Source: a virus (lineage: Duplodnaviria > Heunggongvirae > Uroviricota > Caudoviricetes). Taken from it: a stretch of DNA of 32,021 bases. Within the stretch, counting starts at the first letter, position 1; the number at the start of each line of letters is the position of its first letter. The stretch lies in the IMG/VR virus record IMGVR_UViG_2531839667_000012. The stretch is one strand, 5' to 3'. The notes beneath the pieces are model-generated. The model was not told where the DNA came from and ran no database searches. It worked only from the letters and a program-made list of their open reading frames with translations. Positions 1,829 to 32,021 of this stretch are shown in pieces. The position numbers and the translations under genes are program-made.

Positions 1829-4483
1829 TTATCGTTGAAAAACCCAGCACTTCACCGTCGCCGGGCGGCGCGATGCGGCTGGGTAACGGCGGTTAAATTC
1901 GGCGTTAATGCCGCTGTTAACCGTTCTGACTTCAATAAACTTGTGGGTACGGCTGGTTTTTAGCACTCGCTTCAAATCGCTGACCGGCGGGATCTGCTGG
2001 CGGCGTTCGGTAGCCAGTTGAATAAAGTGGTTAAGGTTGACGGCGATAAGCTGTTCATCGCGCGAGTGGTTAAGCTGCGGTTCGTCGTCGCCATCGAGGA
2101 AGTCGAAAATATCCCAGAACTCCTGCACCAGAGGATGATCGGCGCTGATGGCCTGCTGGCGCTCCAGACTGAGGCGGATAAACATTTCTCTGGTTGCCTG
2201 TAGCTGCTCCTTCGTGACCGGAATAACCAGCGCCAGCGCGTCGAGCAGCGCCATAAGCTGGGCGTGGTTTTTAATGATGCGGATATGGCGAATATCGGGG
2301 TGGGCGTGAAGCTGCTGCTCGTATAGCGGGATCTGCCGGTTGACGCACTCCAGCACGGCCTGTTCCGCCAGCGCTGCCTTCAGCATAAAGCCGGAAAGCT
2401 GTTCCACCGGCAGGCGTTCGAGCTGCTCGGCAGCGACCTTGGTCTGAGTATTCTGGCCGCTGCGGTCGGTGTACAGGTGAATAATACGTTCCAGCACCGG
2501 GTTAGAGGCGCTGACGTCGGCGTTTTGCGCAATCACAATCGCGCCCCGGAACGGAGGTTCATAGGTCTCGTTACCGCTGTTACGCAGACCGCGAGACCGC
2601 ACTGACCGCCCGTTGTAGGCGGTTTTTAGCTCTTCCCAATCAAAGCCGCGTTGCTTTGCACCCTCCTGATTACGGTCACCCTCGATCAGCACCACCGGCA
2701 TGTTCGCCACCTGCGCAAAGTTGCGCGCGCGGGCGGCCAGCGTTGATTTAGACGGATCGAAACCTTCATAGTCGCGTCGGCCTAACAGCTTCCAGAGAAA
2801 CTCTATCAGCGTGGTTTTGCCGCTGCCGGGTTCGCCAACGATTTCCAGAAACGGAAAGCTCTTGTGCTTGTCGCGGATCTGTTCGGCAAACATCGTCCCA
2901 AACCAGAACGCCAGCGCCACAAAGCCCTTTGCGCCAAACGCCTGCCAGAGTAGCTGGGGCCACTGGCTGTCCATCTGTTTTAAATTGTTGTTCAGCGTCA
3001 GGCTGACCGACTGGTTCAGGCTTTTAAGGCTGAGTTTGCCCATGTCGAAGAAGTCTTCTTCGTTGAGTGTGTACAGCCGACCATCGCGAACGGCCAGATC
3101 GTTGAACACGTAAGCGCGGTATTCTTTGCTGTAGCCGATAAAATCAGTGGTCTGGACAGTTTTGATTTTGGGAAGCTGCTTGAGCAGCAACTTATCTAAC
3201 TGCTGACTGGTGCCGGTGAAGATGCCGCCCTGCGCGATATGCAGCAGGCGCTTTTTGAATTCTGAGCCGCTGGAAAGTTGGGAGCCGGTGAAGGTGTTTT
3301 TTATCGGCGGCGTGTCGTCCGGGAAGTTAATGCGAAAGTAATACCAGCTTTCGTCGGTAATGGTGTTGGCCTGATAGTAGAGGGCGGTCGGGTAGCAGTT
3401 GGCGATCTCCACCACGGCGGACGACTCTTTCAGCGCCTTCTGTTTCAGCTCTTCTTCGCTCAGGTCGTCATTGGAGAATGAGATGCTTTCATGCACCCGC
3501 ATATAGCGGTCAATATCCAGCTTGAACCAGAACAGGCGGCTGTCAAACTCGAAGTGGAACTCTTTACGCTCTGTCTGTTCGTGCATCAGCAGGGCTTTGG
3601 CGGCGGGAGAGGTGGCGATCAGCAGAGAGCCGTAGTAGCGGTATTTCTTCACCAGCTCCGGGTTAAGCCGGTCGCGCTGGTGCAAATCGTTCCAGTCCAG
3701 CTTGCTGCGGGAATGCGGCGTCTGTGCGGCGGCTGCGCTCCAGCCTTCGTCCCGGCTGCGCTTTACCCATCGCCGGGTATAGCTCATGCCCGCCTTGTCG
3801 TTATCCAGCGCCCAGACCAGTAAAGGGCGCTTTTTATCCACGAACAGCGCGGCCAGTTGACTTAACGCCTGCGCCGGATAGTTGTTGCAGGTCATCAGGG
3901 AAACGGCGGCGATGCCGTGGTGATGCAAGGCGATAGCGTCAAAAATGCCTTCAACCAGCCAGATCTCCTGTTGTTCCTCCAGTTTCAGCGTTGGCAATTG
4001 CCACCATAGCCCGCTGTAAGCGCCGTGAAAGTTGGCTTTGCGATCGCCGAAACGTTGTGGACGGTCAACGATCCGCTCCCACCACACGCCGTCAGCCAGC
4101 GGGAAACGTACCGTCGCTGAACCGATATCACGCCGTGGGTCGTAGTAGTTCTCTTGAGTGTAACAGTCACGGATCAGCGAAAGGTCAAAGCCGCGCATCT
4201 CGCGCAGGTAGGCATCGGCGGCGGCCTGTGGGTTTTCCGGGGTTGGGGGATATCTGTCTGACCAGCTTTCAAACAGATCCGGGTACATATCTTTGATGTG
4301 GATTTCGGCATTGCATTTATTCAGGCGACCGCAGCGCAATACCCACGGGCTGATGGCATTGGTGTACAGCTCTTTTTTCTGGCAGTCCGGGCAGATGCCC
4401 TGCCGCAGCCAGTCGCCCTGTTCTTTAAAGGAAAAGTCGGCCAGCAGTCGCCGCGTAATTTCCTGATGAAGTTGTGGTTGCAT
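1829..4483 (-). CDS. Primase-helicase (N-terminal zinc finger, DnaG-like toprim motifs, C-terminal P-loop NTPase), P4 alpha-like in function
   Basis: 884 aa ORF; CPDC...C cysteine cluster near N-terminus; LVEGIFDAIAL and WALDNDKAG toprim-like motifs; Walker A GEPGSGKTT; AAAGG SD about 8 nt upstream of the ATG at 4483. Confidence 0.85.
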   Translation of the reverse strand: MQPQLHQEITRRLLADFSFKEQGDWLRQGICPDCQKKELYTNAISPWVLRCGRLNKCNAEIHIKDMYPDLFESWSDRYPPTPENPQAAADAYLREMRGFDLSLIRDCYTQENYYDPRRDIGSATVRFPLADGVWWERIVDRPQRFGDRKANFHGAYSGLWWQLPTLKLEEQQEIWLVEGIFDAIALHHHGIAAVSLMTCNNYPAQALSQLAALFVDKKRPLLVWALDNDKAGMSYTRRWVKRSRDEGWSAAAAQTPHSRSKLDWNDLHQRDRLNPELVKKYRYYGSLLIATSPAAKALLMHEQTERKEFHFEFDSRLFWFKLDIDRYMRVHESISFSNDDLSEEELKQKALKESSAVVEIANCYPTALYYQANTITDESWYYFRINFPDDTPPIKNTFTGSQLSSGSEFKKRLLHIAQGGIFTGTSQQLDKLLLKQLPKIKTVQTTDFIGYSKEYRAYVFNDLAVRDGRLYTLNEEDFFDMGKLSLKSLNQSVSLTLNNNLKQMDSQWPQLLWQAFGAKGFVALAFWFGTMFAEQIRDKHKSFPFLEIVGEPGSGKTTLIEFLWKLLGRRDYEGFDPSKSTLAARARNFAQVANMPVVLIEGDRNQEGAKQRGFDWEELKTAYNGRSVRSRGLRNSGNETYEPPFRGAIVIAQNADVSASNPVLERIIHLYTDRSGQNTQTKVAAEQLERLPVEQLSGFMLKAALAEQAVLECVNRQIPLYEQQLHAHPDIRHIRIIKNHAQLMALLDALALVIPVTKEQLQATREMFIRLSLERQQAISADHPLVQEFWDIFDFLDGDDEPQLNHSRDEQLIAVNLNHFIQLATERRQQIPPVSDLKRVLKTSRTHKFIEVRTVNSGINAEFNRRYPAASRRPATVKCWVFQR

Positions 4484-4571: not shown

Positions 4572-4802
4572 TTACGCGATTTTCTGTTTTTGCAGAAATT
4601 GCCCGCGTGTGGATAGTGGTATGTGTATCTTAGGATTCGGGCAACCGCTCGGTACCACCGTTCCCATCACGGTTTCCATTGCGATAAATGAAAACGAACA
4701 GTTAACGTTTTTGCACTGGTAATAGAGCTTACGTACCAGCGGTGACATATATTCGCTGCTGCGAATTATCGCCTTACCGTCGCAGTGTGGGCATTTCATC
4801 AT
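4572..4802 (-). CDS. ogr: Ogr/Delta-family zinc-finger late transcription activator
   Basis: CPHCDGKA...YYQCKNVNCSFSF matches the Ogr C-x2-C...C-x4-C pattern; ORF track begins at a GTG (4820), but an ATG at 4802 with AAGGAG upstream is the more likely start. Confidence 0.85.
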   Translation of the reverse strand: MMKCPHCDGKAIIRSSEYMSPLVRKLYYQCKNVNCSFSFIAMETVMGTVVPSGCPNPKIHIPLSTRGQFLQKQKIA

Positions 4803-4838
4803 GTCCGATCTCCTTACCACTTTTAACTAACTGAAACA

Positions 4839-5100: not shown

Positions 5101-5466
5101 ATGTCAACCGAGAAACAGGAAATATTTTACATTATTGGGGCTAGGTTGCGAGAAGAACGTGAGCGACTTGAGAAGAGCCAGAAATTTATGGCTGAGGCAC
5201 TTGGGGCGGATATCAAAACATGGAACAACTATGAGCGGGGGGCATCGGTGCCTGATGCTCATAAATTAACCATTATAGCGGCAGTGGGTGTAGACGTTCT
5301 GTATGTTCTGACTGGCAACCGCACGCCTGTAGTTACGTTGTCCAGTAAAGAGAGTGTGTTGGTCGAAAATTACCGTTCTGCTACGCCAGAACACCAGTCC
5401 ACCCTTGACACGGTTAGCGCTGCGCTTGCGCAACCGGGTGTAGGGAAGAAAGCTGGAGGGGCGTAA
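5101..5466 (+). CDS. XRE-family helix-turn-helix regulator (candidate immunity repressor / operon regulator)
   Basis: 121 aa; N-terminal IGARLREERERLEKSQKFMAEALGADIKTWNNYERG is an HTH_XRE/Cro-C1 pattern; AGGAAA upstream; stops 5 bp before the next gene. Confidence 0.8.
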   Translation: MSTEKQEIFYIIGARLREERERLEKSQKFMAEALGADIKTWNNYERGASVPDAHKLTIIAAVGVDVLYVLTGNRTPVVTLSSKESVLVENYRSATPEHQSTLDTVSAALAQPGVGKKAGGA

Positions 5467-5470
5467 TTTT

Positions 5471-5905
5471 ATGTTTAATACAGTATCTCTTATTATTGTT
5501 GTGATTTTGCTATGTGCTGTCGTTTCAGCTCTTATTACTCAGAAGAGAGAAAAGAAAAAAGGGAGCGTAGATAAAGTTAGTGATGAAATTTTACGTATCA
5601 GGTCTCTTGGGAAAAAACAACCGCTTTATTATTCTAACGCAACCACAAGATATGAAGAAATACCGCCGTCTGTTCAAAAAAATAGAAAAATTAATATACT
5701 GAAAATAGGAAAAGTAAAATATATCGCTTTCAGTTACATAGATAGTAAAGGTGATTTTACTCACCGTGAGGTGGATGTTTCATCTATAGATAATGAATAT
5801 TTACAAGGGTATTGCCACTTAGCTAAAGAGTATAGAACATTTCGCCTTGATAGGATTCAGGGGGATGTTATTTGTAGAGATACAGGGGAAGTTATTTTAA
5901 ATTAA
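5471..5905 (+). CDS. Membrane-anchored WYL-domain protein (N-terminal TM helix, C-terminal WYL-like ligand-binding domain)
   Basis: 144 aa; hydrophobic N-terminus VSLIIVVILLCAVVSALI followed by KREKKK; C-terminal YIAFSYIDSKGDFTHREVDVSSIDNEYLQGYCHLAKEYRTFRLDRIQ resembles the WYL signature; strongly AT-rich. Confidence 0.6.
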   Translation: MFNTVSLIIVVILLCAVVSALITQKREKKKGSVDKVSDEILRIRSLGKKQPLYYSNATTRYEEIPPSVQKNRKINILKIGKVKYIAFSYIDSKGDFTHREVDVSSIDNEYLQGYCHLAKEYRTFRLDRIQGDVICRDTGEVILN

Positions 5906-5929
5906 CGATAAATATTAAGTGAGGATGTT

Positions 5930-6331
5930 TTGAATACATATAATTTATTTATTAGTCATTCATGGAAATATAATGATACATATGAATCATTGGTACGTCT
6001 TTTAAAAGGAAGAGGATATTTTGATTTTAAAAATTACTCAGTACCAAGAATAGATCCTATCATTGGTGCTAATAGCCATTCAGCTTTATATTCAGCAATT
6101 CAAAATCAGATGCGACCGTCTCAGGTAGTTTTGATTTTAGCCGGTGTATATGCATCATATAGTACTTGGATTGATGCAGAAATAAGGATAGCCAAGGATT
6201 GGAAAAAGCCAATTATCGCTATTGAACCTTGGGGATCTGAGAGGACATCCAAGGTAGTAAAAGATGCAGCGAACAGAATTGTAAAATGGAACTCAGATAG
6301 TATTGTTAAAGCAATTAGAGAGTTGGCATAA
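5930..6331 (+). CDS. Minimal TIR-like domain protein (predicted NAD+-processing signal generator)
   Basis: 133 aa; begins LFISHSWKY (TIR betaA-like) and contains YASYSTWIDAEI, resembling the TIR SxWxxxE catalytic-glutamate motif; TTG start with GAGGA upstream; AT-rich. Confidence 0.6.
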   Translation: MNTYNLFISHSWKYNDTYESLVRLLKGRGYFDFKNYSVPRIDPIIGANSHSALYSAIQNQMRPSQVVLILAGVYASYSTWIDAEIRIAKDWKKPIIAIEPWGSERTSKVVKDAANRIVKWNSDSIVKAIRELA

Positions 6332-6341
6332 GGATTAACTG

Positions 6342-7307
6342 ATGAGAAAGGCTCTGTTTGTTGGGATTAATGAATATGCGGAAATTTCTCATCTTGCGGG
6401 ATGTGAAAATGATGCTATGAAGATGTCTGCGGCATTGTCCAGACATGCGGATGGGCGTCCTAATTTTGAAGGGAAAGATTTGATTCACCGTGAGCAGATG
6501 CCTGTAACTAAGGTATTGCTTGAGCAAGAAATTCAGACTTTATTCAGTGGTTCAGCAGATATAGCTTTATTATTCTTTGCTGGGCATGGGTATTTTGATG
6601 AAAATATAGATGAAGGGGTTATCATTCCTCATGATTACTCTTCTCATCAAAGCAATGGTGTGAGAATCAGTGATATCATGCTATGGGCATCGAGAGCAAC
6701 CAATATTAAAAATAAAATAATAATACTAGATTGCTGTCAGGCGGGCGCTGCCGGACAAGTCAGGAACTTAAGAGGTGGAGACTCCATTCTTGCTGATGGC
6801 ACAACAATATTAACCGCATGTCAGCGTGATGAATATGCGCAAGAGCAGGATGGTCAGGGTATTTTTACAGCCTTAATGTTGGAGGCTTTATATGGCGCAG
6901 GTGCTAATATATTGGGGCATGTAACACCCGGTAGTTTGTATAGCTTTGTTGACCAAGCATTAGGTGCATGGGAGCAGCGACCGGTATTTAAAACAAATGT
7001 ATCCAGATTCGTAGTGCTAAGAGAAGTCGGGCCAAGAATCCCGTTAGAAACATTAAGGCAATTACCTGATTGGTTTGCTAGTGGTAGTGCTGAATATCCT
7101 CTTGATCCTAGTTACGAGCCTGATTCAGGAGCACCAAATGAGGATAATGTAAGGATATTTCGGCAATTACAAGCCTGTAATCGTCATGGCCTTGTTGAAC
7201 CTGTTAACGCAGAACATATGTATTATGCAGCGATGAATTCAACTGCATGTAGATTGACCGCTTTGGGAGCCTATTATAGAAAACTGGCAGAGAAAAGGCG
7301 TTTTTGA
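6342..7307 (+). CDS. Caspase-like protease (peptidase C14 / metacaspase-like His-Cys dyad) with C-terminal domain of unknown function
   Basis: 321 aa; KALFVGINEY start, FFAGHGYF (His-Gly) and IILDCCQAGAAG (catalytic Cys) in caspase order and spacing; AAGGA SD 7 nt upstream; AT-rich. Confidence 0.8.
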   Translation: MRKALFVGINEYAEISHLAGCENDAMKMSAALSRHADGRPNFEGKDLIHREQMPVTKVLLEQEIQTLFSGSADIALLFFAGHGYFDENIDEGVIIPHDYSSHQSNGVRISDIMLWASRATNIKNKIIILDCCQAGAAGQVRNLRGGDSILADGTTILTACQRDEYAQEQDGQGIFTALMLEALYGAGANILGHVTPGSLYSFVDQALGAWEQRPVFKTNVSRFVVLREVGPRIPLETLRQLPDWFASGSAEYPLDPSYEPDSGAPNEDNVRIFRQLQACNRHGLVEPVNAEHMYYAAMNSTACRLTALGAYYRKLAEKRRF

Positions 7308-19275: not shown

Positions 19276-19622
19276 GAACGTCTCCTGTCGATCGGAATGG
19301 AGAATGCCCACGGCTGGCCGGGGATATCGGTACGTTCGGCTTCAATAGTGACGCTGAGATCGGCATTTTCCGCAGCAAAGTCCACGCCGATAATCTCGAG
19401 GCGGGGTTCCCAGCGCGTCAGCGCCATAACCACCGCCGACATCACCCGCAGTCGGGTACTGCCATCGTTGGGCTGGTCGATCAGGTTACCGATCAGTGAG
19501 CCATAATCGCGGCGCATCACGCGCGTACCTACCGGCGTGGTCAGAATATCTTTTACGGATTGCTTAATGTGCAGCTCGTCGCTTAACGCTCTGCCGGTTT
19601 CGGCGTTCATACCGAGGTACAT
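19272..19622 (-). CDS. W: Baseplate protein W (gp25-like)
   Basis: 116 aa; position between V and J; gp25/GPW-like sequence. Confidence 0.85.
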   Translation of the reverse strand: MYLGMNAETGRALSDELHIKQSVKDILTTPVGTRVMRRDYGSLIGNLIDQPNDGSTRLRVMSAVVMALTRWEPRLEIIGVDFAAENADLSVTIEAERTDIPGQPWAFSIPIDRRRS

Positions 19623-20221
19623 TACTGTGGCCCTCCGGTATTGCTACCCCCGCGCTCCACGCCTGTGTGCGTGTGGGTATGGACGGTGACGCCGTTGGAG
19701 GTAAAACTGCCGCCGCTGTGAGTGTAAGCGCCTTTAAGCGTGCCGCCTTTTTTAACCGACAGCGTGGTGGTTTCCAGATGCTGGGTGCAGACGACGAGCG
19801 GTGTATCCAGCGTGACGAGGGTACTGGCTTCGACCAGTGCGGTCTTGATGCCGGTGGCTTTTAACGCGCTGGAGCGCGGATCATATTCAATCACCGCACC
19901 ATCGGGGTAAATGGTGTGGTGAACCTGTTCATCCAGCATCGGGGCGGGGTTGGCGTCAGAGTAAATGGCCGGAAGCGCCACGGCGGTGGTTAACTCTCCG
20001 CTTAAACAGAGCAGTAACACCTGTTCGCCTGTTGATGGCCGCCACCACGTCCGGGCATCACCGGCGCGTAGCGTCAGCCACGGTATCCAGTTGGTGGTCA
20101 GTTCACCAGTGTGAATGCGTACTCGATCGCCCTTCACCTCTTCAACGGTGCCGGTACGGATCAGGTTTTCAATGCGCCGGTGCAGCTCGGCGATGTTGGC
20201 TGGGTGGTTTGCGTCGCTCAT
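19622..20221 (-). CDS. V: Baseplate spike/hub protein (P2 gpV-like)
   Basis: 199 aa; first gene after an Ogr-box promoter; C-terminal Gly/His/Thr-rich tip. Confidence 0.85.
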   Translation of the reverse strand: MSDANHPANIAELHRRIENLIRTGTVEEVKGDRVRIHTGELTTNWIPWLTLRAGDARTWWRPSTGEQVLLLCLSGELTTAVALPAIYSDANPAPMLDEQVHHTIYPDGAVIEYDPRSSALKATGIKTALVEASTLVTLDTPLVVCTQHLETTTLSVKKGGTLKGAYTHSGGSFTSNGVTVHTHTHTGVERGGSNTGGPQ

Positions 20222-20265
20222 GCCGGAATCATTGGGATTCGCGGGCGAAGAGGGAAGGGCTAAGG

Positions 20266-20288
20266 CTTGTAGGATAATGGGCTACAAG
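20266..20288 (-). promoter_or_regulatory. Ogr-box dyad (CTTGTA-N11-TACAAG) of the late promoter for V-W-J-I-H-G
   Basis: cttgtaggataatgggctacaag located 45-67 bp upstream of the V start. Confidence 0.6.
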
Positions 20289-20312
20289 TAAAACGCCCCT
20301 GAGTAGGGGCGT
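20284..20312 (-). terminator. Rho-independent terminator downstream of hicB
   Basis: Hairpin ACGCCCCT-gagt-AGGGGCGT (8-9 bp stem, 4-nt loop) followed on the minus strand by TTTACTT. Confidence 0.6.
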
Positions 20313-20327
20313 TGAACGAAAAAGAGC

Positions 20328-20663
20328 TTAACCGTGCGCAGCCTTCATCAGTGTATCGTTAATCCACTGGTTAACGCTTTTACCGGAGACTTCTGCCGCA
20401 ACGTTAATGGCAGAGTGAATTTCAGGTGGAATACGCAGGCTGATTTTTCCGCTGGCCGGACGCAACGGCTCCCGGCCCCGTTCCTCGCAGTAAGCCAGAT
20501 AGTCGTCTACCGCCTCTTCAAACGCTTTACGCAGATCGGCAACATTATCGGCATGAAAGCCAATGACATCCCGAATGCCTGCAACGTGACCAACAATGCA
20601 TTGATCTTCATCGCTGTATTCAATTTTTGCGGCATAGCCTCTATATGTCATGGTATTCATCAT
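20328..20663 (-). CDS. hicB: HicB-family antitoxin (RNase H-like fold N-domain plus C-terminal RHH DNA-binding domain)
   Basis: 111 aa; YRGYAAKIEYSDEDQCIVGHVAGIRDVIGFHADNVADLRKAFEEAVDDYL and C-terminal KISLRIPPEIHSAINVAA RHH-like segment; overlaps hicA by 4 nt. Confidence 0.85.
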   Translation of the reverse strand: MMNTMTYRGYAAKIEYSDEDQCIVGHVAGIRDVIGFHADNVADLRKAFEEAVDDYLAYCEERGREPLRPASGKISLRIPPEIHSAINVAAEVSGKSVNQWINDTLMKAAHG

Positions 20664-20923
20664 GGTGTTACCCCTACAGCTTCAAGGAATGTTCTGGCAT
20701 CGCGAACCTGATAGGCTTTCGCTTCTTTTTCCGGGTGTGGACGATGAAATGAAGCCACAACCTGATTAATTTCAAACCTGACGCGGGAACCGTTTCCTTC
20801 CGTAGCAATAGCCCCCAAAGCAATAAATAAGGCTTCTATTTTTCGCCATTCCAGCGTGACAGGTGTTGGCGTAGAAAAAACAGCTTGTAAGGTTTTTTTA
20901 TGTTTGGCGCTTAACGTATTCAT
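20660..20923 (-). CDS. hicA: HicA-family mRNA interferase toxin
   Basis: 87 aa; GNGSRVRFEINQVVASFHRPHP resembles E. coli HicA ANGSNHLKLRFHGRRSVMPRHP. Confidence 0.8.
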   Translation of the reverse strand: MNTLSAKHKKTLQAVFSTPTPVTLEWRKIEALFIALGAIATEGNGSRVRFEINQVVASFHRPHPEKEAKAYQVRDARTFLEAVGVTP

Positions 20924-20972
20924 ACAGGGTATTTTCCATAAGTTATTTTATTCTTCCGCCAAGATATAATGA

Positions 20973-20996
20973 TGATATCATTTTTTGATATCATTT
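20973..20996. promoter_or_regulatory. Two copies of palindrome TGATATCA(T) upstream of hicA; candidate HicB operator / hicAB promoter
   Basis: atgatatcat at 20973-20982 and tgatatcat at 20988-20996 in an AT-rich stretch between the S start and hicA start. Confidence 0.5.
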
Positions 20997-21442
20997 CAAG
21001 TCAGGAAGTGAACGATTAGCGCCTCTATCTTTCGCACATCCTCCGCCGAAACCCCCAGCAACTGCCTTTGTGCGTAATCCACCTCCAACCCGTAGCGATT
21101 TACCCGATCGCGCAGGCCATACTGATGAACGGCGGCCATATGTCGAACGCTGCTGAGAAACGAAATGGTTGCTCCCTGCCCATCTCCTTTTCCTTTCATA
21201 TAGCGTGCGGTACGCAGCTTACGGAACATCTGGCGGCGGATCTTTCCTTTTTTACTGCGTAGCTGGGGCTTACGGGGGGCGAACGATGAGCCGTCCGGGT
21301 TTTTCTGCGCGGCTATCCGCTGGCTTTGTGACTGGCGCAGGCTGCGGGCGATTTCCCGCGCCAGTTGGGTTCGGCTTGCCGGGGAGAGCTTTACGAGCAG
21401 GCCATCGGCCCAGCGGTGGAGTTGTTGCAGGTCTTCGCTCAT
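20996..21442 (-). CDS. S: Tail completion protein (P2 gpS-like)
   Basis: 148 aa; position after R; basic central region. Confidence 0.85.
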   Translation of the reverse strand: MSEDLQQLHRWADGLLVKLSPASRTQLAREIARSLRQSQSQRIAAQKNPDGSSFAPRKPQLRSKKGKIRRQMFRKLRTARYMKGKGDGQGATISFLSSVRHMAAVHQYGLRDRVNRYGLEVDYAQRQLLGVSAEDVRKIEALIVHFLT

Positions 21443-24535: not shown

Positions 24536-24635
24536 AGCATTAGCCTCTTTAATGTTGTGGTCAGAGGCCCGTTGGTGTTGGTAGCACCTGCGGGCTTCGT
24601 TCGTTTAAGGGTTGCAAAACATCACGTAATTGCGA

Positions 24636-24676
24636 TGTAATTACAACTACATCATTCTAAGGATTTTGTAATTACA
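24636..24676. promoter_or_regulatory. Two copies of the perfect 10-bp palindrome TGTAATTACA (24636-24645 and 24667-24676); candidate operators in a divergent promoter region
   Basis: Second copy ends immediately before the ATG of the Arc-like gene; an additional half-site-like GTAATTG at 24626-24632. Confidence 0.55.
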
Positions 24677-24847
24677 ATGTCAAGTGAAAAGGCTAAAACA
24701 GATCAGTACCAACTTCGTCTTGCTCATGAATTTAGAAAGCAGCTTGAAGAACAGGCTCGTAAAGATGGAGATACCTCTCTCGCAACATGGATAAAACGCG
24801 TTTTGCGTAAGGAACTTCAGTCACGAGGTATTGAACCCAAAGGATAA
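24677..24847 (+). CDS. Arc/MetJ-type ribbon-helix-helix repressor (56 aa; below the ORF-track size cutoff)
   Basis: Hand translation MSSEKAKTDQYQLRLAHEFRKQLEEQARKDGDTSLATWIKRVLRKELQSRGIEPKG; QYQLRLAHEF...SLATWIKRVL resembles Arc beta-strand and helices. Confidence 0.6.
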   Translation: MSSEKAKTDQYQLRLAHEFRKQLEEQARKDGDTSLATWIKRVLRKELQSRGIEPKG

Positions 24848-24948
24848 TTACGGAGATATCAAGCAGCGCTAAGAAGTTAGGATTATTTGTTCAGCCCAGA
24901 TTAGTCGATATGCACTGATTAACTTAAACATTGTGTGTAGGAGGTGTT

Positions 24949-25602
24949 GTGGATATTGAATTTTTTCTTAAAGAGCGCACAAGATTCGTTACTTATTTCT
25001 ATGAAACGGCTGCTGCACCATTTGTTAACATCATGAATGATATTGAGAATGAAGTGGAACCTTATATTCAGCCGTATGGTGAGAGTGATGAACCAGCTTT
25101 TTTAGATGAATGGTTAGATGCAAAGTCGGGATTAGAAACCTGTGGGCACCATGCATTATCGATGCTTTCGTCTTCTCTTCAGTTGTACCTGAAGGCGTGG
25201 GTAGATCGCTTAGGATATCATAGCGTGAAATCTGATATAAATTTCAAGAAGGGTTGGTTTAATGGCTATCGTGAAATTTTCAACAAAATTGAGTTGGAAA
25301 TGGCAAAATGTCCTGCAAATTTGGAAATAATTGAACAAATTCCCTTGGTGAGAAATCGTGTCCAGCATCCTGAGGAACTTACCTCAATTAATATTTCTCA
25401 CTCAAAAAATGACTTGGAAAAATATCCTCGCCCATACTTTATTCAGGAGTGTGAGCTACTTTTGGCTTCCGAACAGGAAGAAAAATCGTGGTTATTCCCA
25501 CCTACAATATCCCCGACTAAAGAGAAAATATTCGAAGCTATCAGAAATGTTGAAATGCTGTGCTCTTGGTTAGAGTCTGAGTATTGGTCGGCTCTTGACT
25601 AA
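24949..25602 (+). CDS. Hypothetical protein, AT-rich cargo gene under the Arc-like regulator
   Basis: ORF in the track starts at TTG 24931; GTG 24949 follows a GGAGG SD (short spacing). About 217-223 aa; no motif recognised. Confidence 0.5.
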   Translation: MDIEFFLKERTRFVTYFYETAAAPFVNIMNDIENEVEPYIQPYGESDEPAFLDEWLDAKSGLETCGHHALSMLSSSLQLYLKAWVDRLGYHSVKSDINFKKGWFNGYREIFNKIELEMAKCPANLEIIEQIPLVRNRVQHPEELTSINISHSKNDLEKYPRPYFIQECELLLASEQEEKSWLFPPTISPTKEKIFEAIRNVEMLCSWLESEYWSALD

Positions 25603-25637
25603 ATGTAGAATAGAGTAAGTCAGCGTCAAATGAAAAC

Positions 25638-25655
25638 AGCCCGACGAATCGGGCT
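25638..25655. terminator. Hairpin between convergent genes (candidate bidirectional terminator)
   Basis: AGCCCGA-cgaa-TCGGGCT stem-loop; T-run follows on the minus strand (GTTTTCA), weaker on the plus strand. Confidence 0.5.
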
Positions 25656-25691
25656 ATTATGGCTATCAGGCAAACACTACCTTCAAACTCA

Positions 25692-31044: not shown

Positions 31045-32021
31045 ATAACGCAATGGCTTTCACCTTCGGTGAACCCGAAGCCCTGCTGGACAGGCGGGAA
31101 ATACTGAACTATCTGGAGTGCGTAGACTTTGGCAAATGGTATGCGCCGCCGGTGGATTTTAATTCGCTGGCGCTGTCGTTCCGCGCTTCGGCGCATCATA
31201 CCAGCCCGATCTGCGTGAAGCGCAATGTGCTGGTTGGTACCTTCATACCTCATCCGTTGTTGACCCGGCAGGCGTTCAGCCGCCTTGCGCTGGACTATCT
31301 GGTGTTCGGTAATGCCTATCTGGAGCGGCAGGATAACCGGCTGGGCCAGCCGTTAACGCTGGTGCCTGCGCTGGCGAAGTATGTCCGGCGCGGCAAGGCG
31401 CTGGACAGCTATTTCTTTGTTCAGCCCGGTAAAGTGGATCATGAGTTTGCGTCGGGCAGTATCGGCCACCTGCTGGAGCCGGATATCAATCAGGAAATCT
31501 ACGGCCTGCCTGAATACCTCTCTGCGCTGAACGCGGCATGGCTGGATAACTCCGCCACGCTGTTTCGCCGTCGCTACTACAAGAACGGCAGTCATGCCGG
31601 TTTCATCCTCTACCTGAGCGACCCTGCCCATAACGAGGCGGATATTGGGGCGTTACAGGAGGCGCTGGCGAACAGCCGTGGCCCCGGCAACTTCCGCAAT
31701 CTGCTGATGTATCTGCCGAACGGCAAACCGGACAGCGTAAAGGTGATCCCGATTGGCGAGGTGGCGGCGAAAGATAACTTCTCCGATATCAAGAGCGTCA
31801 GCCGTGACGACCAGTTAGCCGCGCACCGGGTACCGCCCGCGCTCATGGGCGTGGTACCGAGTAACGCCGGTGGCTTCGGCGACGCTATCAAAGCGGCGAA
31901 GGTATTCAACTGCAATGAGATCGAGCCGCTGCAGGAACGCTTTAAAGAACTGAACGACTGGCTGGGGCTGGAGGTTATTCGCTTCAAAAAGTACCGCCTT
32001 GCCGACGACGATTCAGAGTAA
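31041..32021 (+). CDS. Q: Portal protein (P2 gpQ-like)
   Basis: 326 aa; follows P; stop codon is the last three bases of the window. Confidence 0.8.
   Translation: MNNAMAFTFGEPEALLDRREILNYLECVDFGKWYAPPVDFNSLALSFRASAHHTSPICVKRNVLVGTFIPHPLLTRQAFSRLALDYLVFGNAYLERQDNRLGQPLTLVPALAKYVRRGKALDSYFFVQPGKVDHEFASGSIGHLLEPDINQEIYGLPEYLSALNAAWLDNSATLFRRRYYKNGSHAGFILYLSDPAHNEADIGALQEALANSRGPGNFRNLLMYLPNGKPDSVKVIPIGEVAAKDNFSDIKSVSRDDQLAAHRVPPALMGVVPSNAGGFGDAIKAAKVFNCNEIEPLQERFKELNDWLGLEVIRFKKYRLADDDSE

Follow-up and report, generated by a model that had tools for sequence, protein, structure and literature searches.

A complete P2-like (Peduoviridae) prophage of Escherichia coli carries a class 4 hicAB type II toxin-antitoxin (TA) cassette between its late genes S and V. 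The cassette is exchangeable cargo (a 'moron') in an accessory slot at the S-V junction, and cargo of this kind is ordinary for prophages. The prophage is IMG/VR record IMGVR_UViG_2531839667_000012 (Duplodnaviria; Heunggongvirae; Uroviricota; Caudoviricetes), and it fills the whole stretch of 32,021 nucleotides analysed here (the window), from the integrase at position 1 to the portal gene at 32021. Our full explanation is that the class 4 hicAB moron is self-repressed, is also transcribed by late read-through, and benefits its carrier by excluding other phages. We give this explanation a probability of about 0.5. Its architectural part, taken alone, is very probably correct.

The S-V junction carries exchangeable cargo

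A prophage beside guaA in E. coli 24A16CRGN010 is ~97% identical to the window. In that genome the annotation pipeline PGAP names both genes as HicA and HicB family members, flanked by 'virion morphogenesis protein' and 'baseplate assembly protein V'. Proteins with exactly these HicA and HicB sequences come from E. coli and are present on ~590 contigs, and the order S-hicA-hicB-V was found in all 24 contigs that were read. The S/V backbone of this prophage was detected in only four of 5,426 complete E. coli genomes. In the same slot, one of the four carries hicAB, two carry a 301-aa AbiTii protein, and one carries a 151-aa PD-Lambda-3_A homologue (PADLOC matches of 1e-42 for AbiTii and 1.3e-38 for PD-Lambda-3_A), with the S and V backbone 96-99% identical among genomes with hicAB, AbiTii or PD-Lambda-3. 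The IMG/VR contigs whose V is 80-100% identical carry a second hicAB allele, AbiTii, a RelE (PF06296) plus helix-turn-helix (HTH) pair, or a Gp49/HigB-like protein plus HI1420-type antidote; the last two pairs sit on the opposite strand. Small TA pairs account for four of the six cargo types of the slot. In more distant relatives and in phage 186, S and V are adjacent and there is no cargo.

We compared the edges of the cargo. Between cargo variants, homology is lost within the final 15-20 codons of S and picks up again at the half-sites of the dyad in the V promoter. This pattern points to cargo exchange by recombination in the conserved flanks, not to site-specific insertion. The C-terminal tail of gpS (window ~21000-21045, minus strand) differs between variants and travels with the cargo.

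The mobile unit itself measures ~0.68 kb, with the -35 hexamer of its own promoter at one end and the stop codon of hicB at the other; the TGA stop codon of S lies inside this -35 hexamer. When prophage and chromosomal copies were compared, homology began exactly at the -35 and ended at the hicB stop, and the downstream hairpins differed. HicB homologues with 86-89% identity are chromosomal and occur in the arrangements dusA-hicAB-traF-like (Enterobacter, Kluyvera) and norR-hicAB-gst (Yersinia). The GC content is 0.36-0.45 across the insert versus 0.58-0.61 in the flanks. When the AbiTii and PD-Lambda-3 cargo was scanned for promoters and terminators, the results were no better than with shuffles. 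A megablast search of the insert against 50,697 phage records returned no DNA match; the lineage is distant from deposited phages, with V at most 53% identical to that of phage 186, PSP3 and Klebsiella phages. We found no earlier description of the S-V junction as a mini-hotspot rich in TA and abortive infection (Abi) genes.

These comparisons also bear on the possibility that the cassette is a selfish passenger without gain to phage or host, kept because the slot tolerates ~0.5-1.1 kb of extra DNA and TA cassettes are hard to lose. The same cassette at unrelated chromosomal sites without defence neighbours is consistent with this idea, as are the lack of a PADLOC match for hicAB and the small TA pairs, typical selfish elements, that make up most of the cargo types. 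However, the packaging limit of a 32-kb phage should disfavour useless DNA, the two remaining slot occupants are recognised defence genes, and the exact proteins recur on ~590 contigs with the S-V context in all of those read. We consider a pure passenger unlikely and prefer the view that the cassette is cargo with a benefit.

The HicA and HicB proteins

Both proteins were assigned by profile matches (Table 1). The HicA_toxin model PF07927, which recognizes the window HicA, gives E. coli K-12 HicA a similar score of 30.9 bits. The hicB start codon overlaps the hicA stop codon by 4 bp (ATGA).

The AlphaFold2 model of HicA (predicted local distance difference test, pLDDT, 92) shows an extra N-terminal helix followed by an alpha-beta-beta-beta-alpha core. 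The elements are helix 6-16 (extra), helix 26-35, strands 39-42, 47-52 and 55-60, and helix 70-82. The top Foldseek matches of this model in the PDB were HicA of B. pseudomallei (6G26_E, probability 0.99), E. coli (6HPB_A) and T. thermophilus (1WHZ); the small size of the domain accounts for their weak E-values (0.02-0.4). The HicB model (pLDDT 74) comprises a four-stranded sheet with a long helix (pLDDT 71-86) and a C-terminus resembling a ribbon-helix-helix (RHH) domain, in which segment 72-78 is followed by helices 80-93 and 97-110. The best PDB matches of this model were N-terminal domains of HicB, namely 6G1C of B. pseudomallei (probability 0.82), 4P78_A of Y. pestis (0.87) and 5YRZ_C of S. 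pneumoniae (0.91), again with weak E-values (0.2-0.9). When HicA, HicB and a profile of 25 HicA sequences were searched against the PDB by sequence and profile methods, only chance matches to CBP came up, and a search of NCBIfam gave nothing useful for HicA or HicB. In the scheme of Gerdes (2024, PMC10865869), hicAB modules whose HicB carries an RHH domain form class 4, and the present cassette belongs to this class.

A preliminary description, drawn from the sequence alone, had placed a HicA-like toxin and a HicB-like antitoxin with a C-terminal RHH domain between S and V and regarded the pair as an insert. The profile matches and predicted folds agree with the protein assignments. The position is confirmed by the flanking genes on the minus strand (TIGR01635 for S and TIGR01644 for V), and the status of an insert is borne out by the other cargo that related prophages carry in the same slot.

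An open reading frame (ORF) of 125 aa on the plus strand (20334-20711) was considered as a gene and rejected as an antisense shadow of hicB.

The hicAB promoter and candidate operator

The spacer between S and hicA is 72 bp long and holds the best sigma-70 match of the region in the promoter scan. Two copies of the palindrome TGATATCA lie within this promoter, 13 bp apart from centre to centre, and occupy the promoter spacer and the -10 element. Four copies of this 8-mer occur in the 32-kb window versus 0.41 expected, and none of 100 shuffles reached four.

The arrangement TTG-N3-TGATATCA-N5-TGATATCAT was present upstream of hicA in all 34 fetched close-homologue loci with an intact hicA start, which come from six or more genomic contexts and include the chromosomal copies of Enterobacter, Kluyvera and Yersinia. 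The N5 between the palindromes is variable (AAAAA, AAAAG, AAATA, TAAAG, CTTTA, ATTTG or GTTTG), and the sequence flanking the operator diverges among loci, with the Yersinia flanks unrelated. A 35th locus, from an uncultured gammaproteobacterium with 62% identity, retains the double palindrome. Because the promoter-operator is conserved before hicA in every close homologue with an intact hicA start, chromosomal copies included, it belongs to the cassette. At ~30% identity, hicAB homologues (Legionella, Chlorobi, Bacteroidota and various metagenome-assembled genomes) have a different upstream palindrome, TGCAACTA-N5-TAGTTGCA. Such a shift is expected if operator and RHH domain co-evolve, and the comparison suggests that they may have done so across the hicAB family.

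From this footprint, we infer that the palindromes are the HicB operator and would be bound by HicB. The extended -10 and palindrome 2 are one and the same sequence, so repressor binding would block access of RNA polymerase. In the E. coli and B. pseudomallei HicAB systems, HicB autorepression acts via palindromic operators and is relieved by excess HicA (PMC10865869). This compact promoter-operator, in which palindrome 2 doubles as the extended -10, offers a clean, portable model of RHH autoregulation.

Two further observations were made in the S-hicA spacer. The motif TTGGCG, ~10 nt downstream of the -10 and near the predicted transcript start, is conserved at most hicAB homologue loci although the surrounding bases vary. 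An AU-rich hairpin that the two palindromes would form in read-through RNA was considered as a terminator of late transcription and rejected as weak (whole-region z = -1.2).

A HicA subfamily with arginine at the catalytic position

In characterised HicA toxins, the catalytic motif is G-S-H. The window HicA reads G45-S46-R47 at this point, and strand beta2 begins at residue 47. The histidine that follows Gly-Ser at the beta2 start is essential in HicA of S. pneumoniae, B. pseudomallei and N. gonorrhoeae (PMC6159526, PMC12297915). We aligned 151 sequences, namely 150 cluster representatives and the window sequence. Position 47 was arginine in 123 of them, alanine in 11, serine in six and glycine in three, and it was never histidine. 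Near-invariant positions were G45 (149/151), S46 (146/151), H60 (142/151) and H63 (143/151), with the two histidines falling in an H-R-P-H-P motif. The same pattern, no histidine at 47 with H60 and H63 kept, was seen in homologues down to 25% identity. The subfamily comprises 1,214 clusters at 50% identity (E <= 1e-3) and is spread over Gamma- and Deltaproteobacteria, Bacteroidota and Chlorobi. The catalytic position was mapped from the G-S motif, DSSP strand boundaries and Pfam coordinates rather than by direct alignment to a solved HicA; hhalign of a 25-sequence profile against E. coli HicA gave a probability of 1.6% and no usable alignment.

Strands 47-52 and 55-60 form a hairpin in the model, so residue 60 pairs with residue 47 across beta2-beta3. 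Given that R47 replaces the catalytic histidine, catalysis, if any, probably proceeds via H60 and/or H63. On the basis of the predicted model, we infer that the active-site histidine has shifted to the neighbouring strand (H60/H63). A relocated active site would possibly have a different RNA specificity. We found no earlier description of this histidine-less HicA subfamily. The broader proposal, that a large HicA subfamily has its active site moved to H60/H63 and that the S-V junction is at the same time a dedicated mini-hotspot for single small abortive-infection modules, is tentative, and we are inclined to doubt that both parts hold together. If they did, this hicAB would be a genuine phage-exclusion system and offer a first experimental way into the idea that HicAB acts in defence.

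The missing histidine could also mean that the subfamily is not an RNase toxin. HicA would then have a non-catalytic RNA-binding or other activity, and the pair would be a regulator, not a kill/rescue module. The absence of H at position 47 in any aligned sequence is in line with this, as is the essential role of the beta2-start histidine in the three toxins named above. However, H60 and H63 are more conserved than almost all other residues, and the pairing of H60 with position 47 suggests a relocated site. The tight hicA-hicB overlap and the autoregulatory operator are, moreover, hallmarks of a first gene that needs neutralisation. We therefore rate a non-toxic regulator as quite improbable and retain the reading of HicA as a toxin.

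The G-S-R / H-R-P-H-P subfamily is abundant, and annotation pipelines call it 'HicA toxin', yet it lacks the residue that underlies the accepted mechanism. How or whether it cleaves RNA would refine the accepted HicA mechanism.

Terminator, late promoter and transcription

The hairpin downstream of hicB spans 20313 to 20292, and the dyad of the V promoter starts three bases beyond. Downstream of the late X...S genes and of hicAB, this hairpin is the first strong predicted terminator; from the X-operon box (23978) down to it, there are only weak 5-bp terminator-like matches. We conclude that it probably doubles as the late-operon terminator.

The dyad TTGTA-N11-TACAA occurs four times in the window (13929, 20267, 23978 and 29178) versus 0.36 expected, and none of 100 shuffles reached four. 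When mapped on an annotated relative, the four copies lie upstream of the tail sheath gene (FI), V, X and the divergent O/P genes, all of which are late operons. The Ogr/Delta-like protein encoded at 4572-4820 is the presumed reader of these dyads. The centre of the dyad before V (20277) is 56 nt from the V ATG. At eight loci with six cargoes, the half-sites and a distance of 55.5-56 nt are kept, and the 11-nt spacer varies freely. In the P2 annotation, V is transcribed from the first base of its start codon, and 55.5 nt separate this start from the centre of the activator site of the V promoter. The V mRNA is thus probably leaderless or nearly so, as that annotation implies. The box spacing is TGT-N13-ACA here versus N11 as read in the P2 V promoter, and the literature consensus for late-promoter boxes is N12. 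Because its spacing differs from both, the box appears to be a lineage variant. A -10-like hexamer, AATGAT, ends 6 nt before the V ATG (window 20221-20288, minus strand).

Late read-through should reach hicAB as well, since the pair points the same way as the X...S genes and S is not followed by a terminator before hicA. The cassette brings its own promoter, which makes expression in the lysogen plausible. The preliminary description had proposed two upstream palindromes as a candidate HicB operator, a GC-rich hairpin terminator downstream, an Ogr-box late promoter for V directly after it, and, from these, an autonomous transcription unit. The first of these is now backed by the phylogenetic footprint over 34 loci. 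The hairpin is predicted to be stable, and the late promoter is supported by its four copies, its fixed distance of 56 nt to the V ATG and its P2 geometry. The autonomy holds in part: the cassette has its own promoter, operator and terminator, but read-through from the late genes into hicAB is expected.

The orientation raised a further possibility, that hicAB is a late-function gene pair at the tail end of the X...S operon and serves the lytic cycle of the phage itself (e.g. host mRNA shut-off). The co-orientation and the missing terminator would fit. A conserved sigma-70 promoter and operator of its own would not, and equivalent cargo lies on the opposite strand in two sister phages and in P2 (orf30), and many relatives have no cargo in the slot. 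We regard this possibility as extremely unlikely and keep late read-through as an addition to the self-repressed expression of the moron.

Proposed mechanism and selective benefit

We propose the following sequence of events. HicB would bind both palindromes in the lysogen as RHH dimers, either by itself or in complex with HicA. As the palindromes cover the promoter spacer and the extended -10, the operon would be held at a low, autoregulated level, and HicA would be sequestered by the N-terminal domain of HicB. If HicB were lost or outnumbered, free HicA would arrest the cell. In lytic growth, hicAB would also be transcribed by read-through from the late X...S genes, and the hairpin after hicB would end this transcript just before the V promoter.

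By analogy with its slot-mates, the most likely selective benefit, held with low certainty, would be the exclusion of other phages by abortive infection. Phage exclusion is favoured because the slot-mates are Abi or defence genes and other TA pairs. The defence-like cargo in other slots of the same prophage was also counted for exclusion. A defence role for HicA has been proposed from bioinformatics only (Gerdes 2024, PMC10865869). With equally low certainty, we rank exclusion ahead of prophage addiction and pure selfishness.

Prophage addiction would work by post-segregational killing: upon prophage loss, labile HicB disappears and longer-lived HicA arrests the cell. This is the classical role of TA pairs on mobile elements, and the lysogen-type sigma-70 promoter of the cassette would suit it. 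Deletion of hicAB2 in P. putida came with frequent prophage loss, a first hint of such a role, but direct quantitative PCR showed no hicAB2 effect on prophage stability (PMC12894663). Sister prophages carry AbiTii or PD-Lambda-3 in the slot instead of any TA pair. In addition, the P2 prophage is non-inducible, and P2-like prophages are hence already very stable. Addiction is therefore, in our estimate, an improbable account, on a par with the selfish passenger, and we continue to favour exclusion.

Several points weigh against our full explanation. First, the histidine essential in all characterised HicAs is missing here, so that toxicity is an assumption, and the proximity of H60 to R47 comes from the hairpin register of a predicted model, not from coordinates. 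Second, neither HicA nor HicB matched any PADLOC defence model (PADLOC-DB v2), and we found no experiment on the cassette or on any member of its subfamily. Third, HicAB2 of P. putida P1, a working TA pair, left prophage stability and resistance to the tested phages unchanged (PMC12894663); it is the only prophage hicAB that we found to have been tested for stability or exclusion roles. Finally, the U-tract of the terminator is short (UUUUAC).

If the cassette does exclude phages, it would give experimental support to the so-far bioinformatic proposal of HicAB as a defence system (Gerdes 2024), and the S-V junction would become one more P2-like defence hotspot in which to search for new systems.

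Table 1. Positions of the hicAB cassette, its control elements and related genes in the window.
Feature	Position	Strand	Basis
gpV (baseplate spike), first gene of the V late operon	19622-20221	-	TIGR01644 188 bits; Phage_spike, Phage_base_V, Apex
Ogr-type activator box of the V promoter, CTTGTA-N11-TACAAG (CTTGTAGCCCATTATCCTACAAG)	20288->20266	-	Repeat count, position, P2 annotation
Intrinsic-terminator-like hairpin AACGCCCCT-ACTC-AGGGGCGTT, then TTAC	20288-20313	-	9 bp, 6 GC pairs, -17.3 kcal/mol, z = -4.1
hicB, 111 aa, C-terminal RHH	20328-20663	-	Pfam HicB PF05534 66 bits (residues 55-105); TacA1 RHH model 24 bits (73-110)
hicA, 87 aa	20660-20923	-	Pfam HicA_toxin (PF07927) 33.5 bits, cut-off 27, residues 26-75
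TTGGCG motif close to the predicted transcript start, ~10 nt past the -10	20957-20962	-	Kept in most homologue loci
Predicted hicAB sigma-70 promoter: -35 TTGAAA 20999-20994, 16-nt spacer, extended -10 TGaTATCAT 20980-20972	20972-20999	-	10/12 matches + TG
Candidate operator palindrome 2, TGATATCA, doubles as extended -10	20973-20980	.	Sequence, homologue footprint
Candidate operator palindrome 1, TGATATCA, abuts the -35	20986-20993	.	Sequence, homologue footprint
gpS (tail completion / virion morphogenesis), last conserved gene of the late X...S run	20996-21442	-	Pfam Phage_tail_S 124 bits, TIGR01635
Ogr/Delta-like zinc-finger late activator (CPHC...CKNVNC)	4572-4820	-	ORF; PGAP annotation of an E. 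coli prophage 94.5% identical

Other variable spots in the prophage

Differences from related prophages were also observed elsewhere. The stretch from the CI-like repressor (5101-5466) to gpD holds a cluster of three genes on the plus strand (5471-7307), which encode a WYL protein (5471-5905), a ThsB-like TIR protein (5930-6331; PF08937, 60 bits) and a caspase-like Peptidase_C14 protein (6342-7307). The cluster looks like TIR-plus-caspase (Thoeris-type) defence cargo. It is not in the ~97%-identical E. coli prophage, which has DUF6037 and a nucleoid-associated protein there.

A third cargo slot, at 24570-25690, is found between gpL and the late box that lies upstream of gpX. Two ORFs, of 56 aa (24677-24847) and 223 aa (24931-25602), occupy it on the strand opposite to the late genes, and neither matched Pfam or PADLOC; in the E. 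coli relative, the slot contains a YlcI/YnfO protein and a Doc toxin. Near the integrase end, the window has 365 bp at 1463-1829 versus a DNA adenine methylase and a DUF7673 gene in the E. coli relative (2509-3903). One copy of the same prophage carries an IS200/IS605 element (TnpA Y1 transposase and TnpB/OrfB) inside the lysB region (locus L011, 623-2283). A search of the whole window against Rfam at gathering thresholds returned zero RNA families.

Comparison with known systems

The cassette resembles class 4 hicAB modules, represented by B. pseudomallei HicAB (6G26), Y. pestis HicA3B3 (4P78) and S. pneumoniae HicBA (5YRZ), in its hicA-to-hicB order and overlapping genes. The HicA fold, which resembles a dsRBD (a domain binding double-stranded RNA), is also shared, as are the RHH of HicB and palindromic operators in the own promoter, and the N-terminal domain of the window HicB may likewise be a partial RNase-H-like domain. 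The cassette differs from them in that no solved HicA or HicB is matched at the sequence level, the window HicA has the extra N-terminal helix, G-S-R and H-R-P-H-P, and the window HicB is shorter (111 aa). With E. coli K-12 hicAB (6HPB), the cassette shares the toxin fold (target-normalised TM score 0.74, root-mean-square deviation 2.2 A), the operon logic and HicB autorepression. In contrast to the window, K-12 HicB has an HTH instead of an RHH domain (class 3), K-12 HicA has His23 at the beta2 start, and the K-12 locus is chromosomal with two promoters.

Phage-borne hicAB with the same type of HicB, annotated HicA/HicB, is found in Burkholderia phage ST79 (Peduoviridae; 47% identity) and in the lambdoid phages mEp234 and HK106 (36% identity). 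Unlike in the window, hicAB of ST79 (NC_021343, 8207-8847) lies beside the portal gene, in an old/tin-type hotspot and not at the S-V junction, and that of mEp234 and HK106 lies in the immunity region.

The slot itself resembles the P2-like hotspots (old/tin between gpA and gpQ, Z/fun, and gpD-CI) in having variable cargo between conserved genes (PMC9122126, PMC9519451, bioRxiv 10.1101/2024.10.15.618418). It is unlike these named hotspots in that it holds one small module of 0.5-1.1 kb, mostly TA or Abi. The S-V slot lies outside the named hotspots and has been alluded to only as 'within the tail genes' (PMC13586616); neither HicA nor the S-V slot is specifically mentioned in Rousset 2022, Vassallo 2022 or the 2026 NAR survey.

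The nearest counterpart of the slot is that of P2 orf30, which occupies the same place between S and the V promoter, is non-essential cargo, and is followed by the activator site. However, P2 has just one gene there, orf30, which lies on the opposite strand, and in P2 the late-operon terminator directly follows S. In the window, hicAB runs in the same direction as the late genes, and the terminator lies beyond it. Phage-borne hicAB, the NCBI naming of these exact proteins as HicA and HicB, and the S-V slot as the site of P2 orf30 are thus already known.

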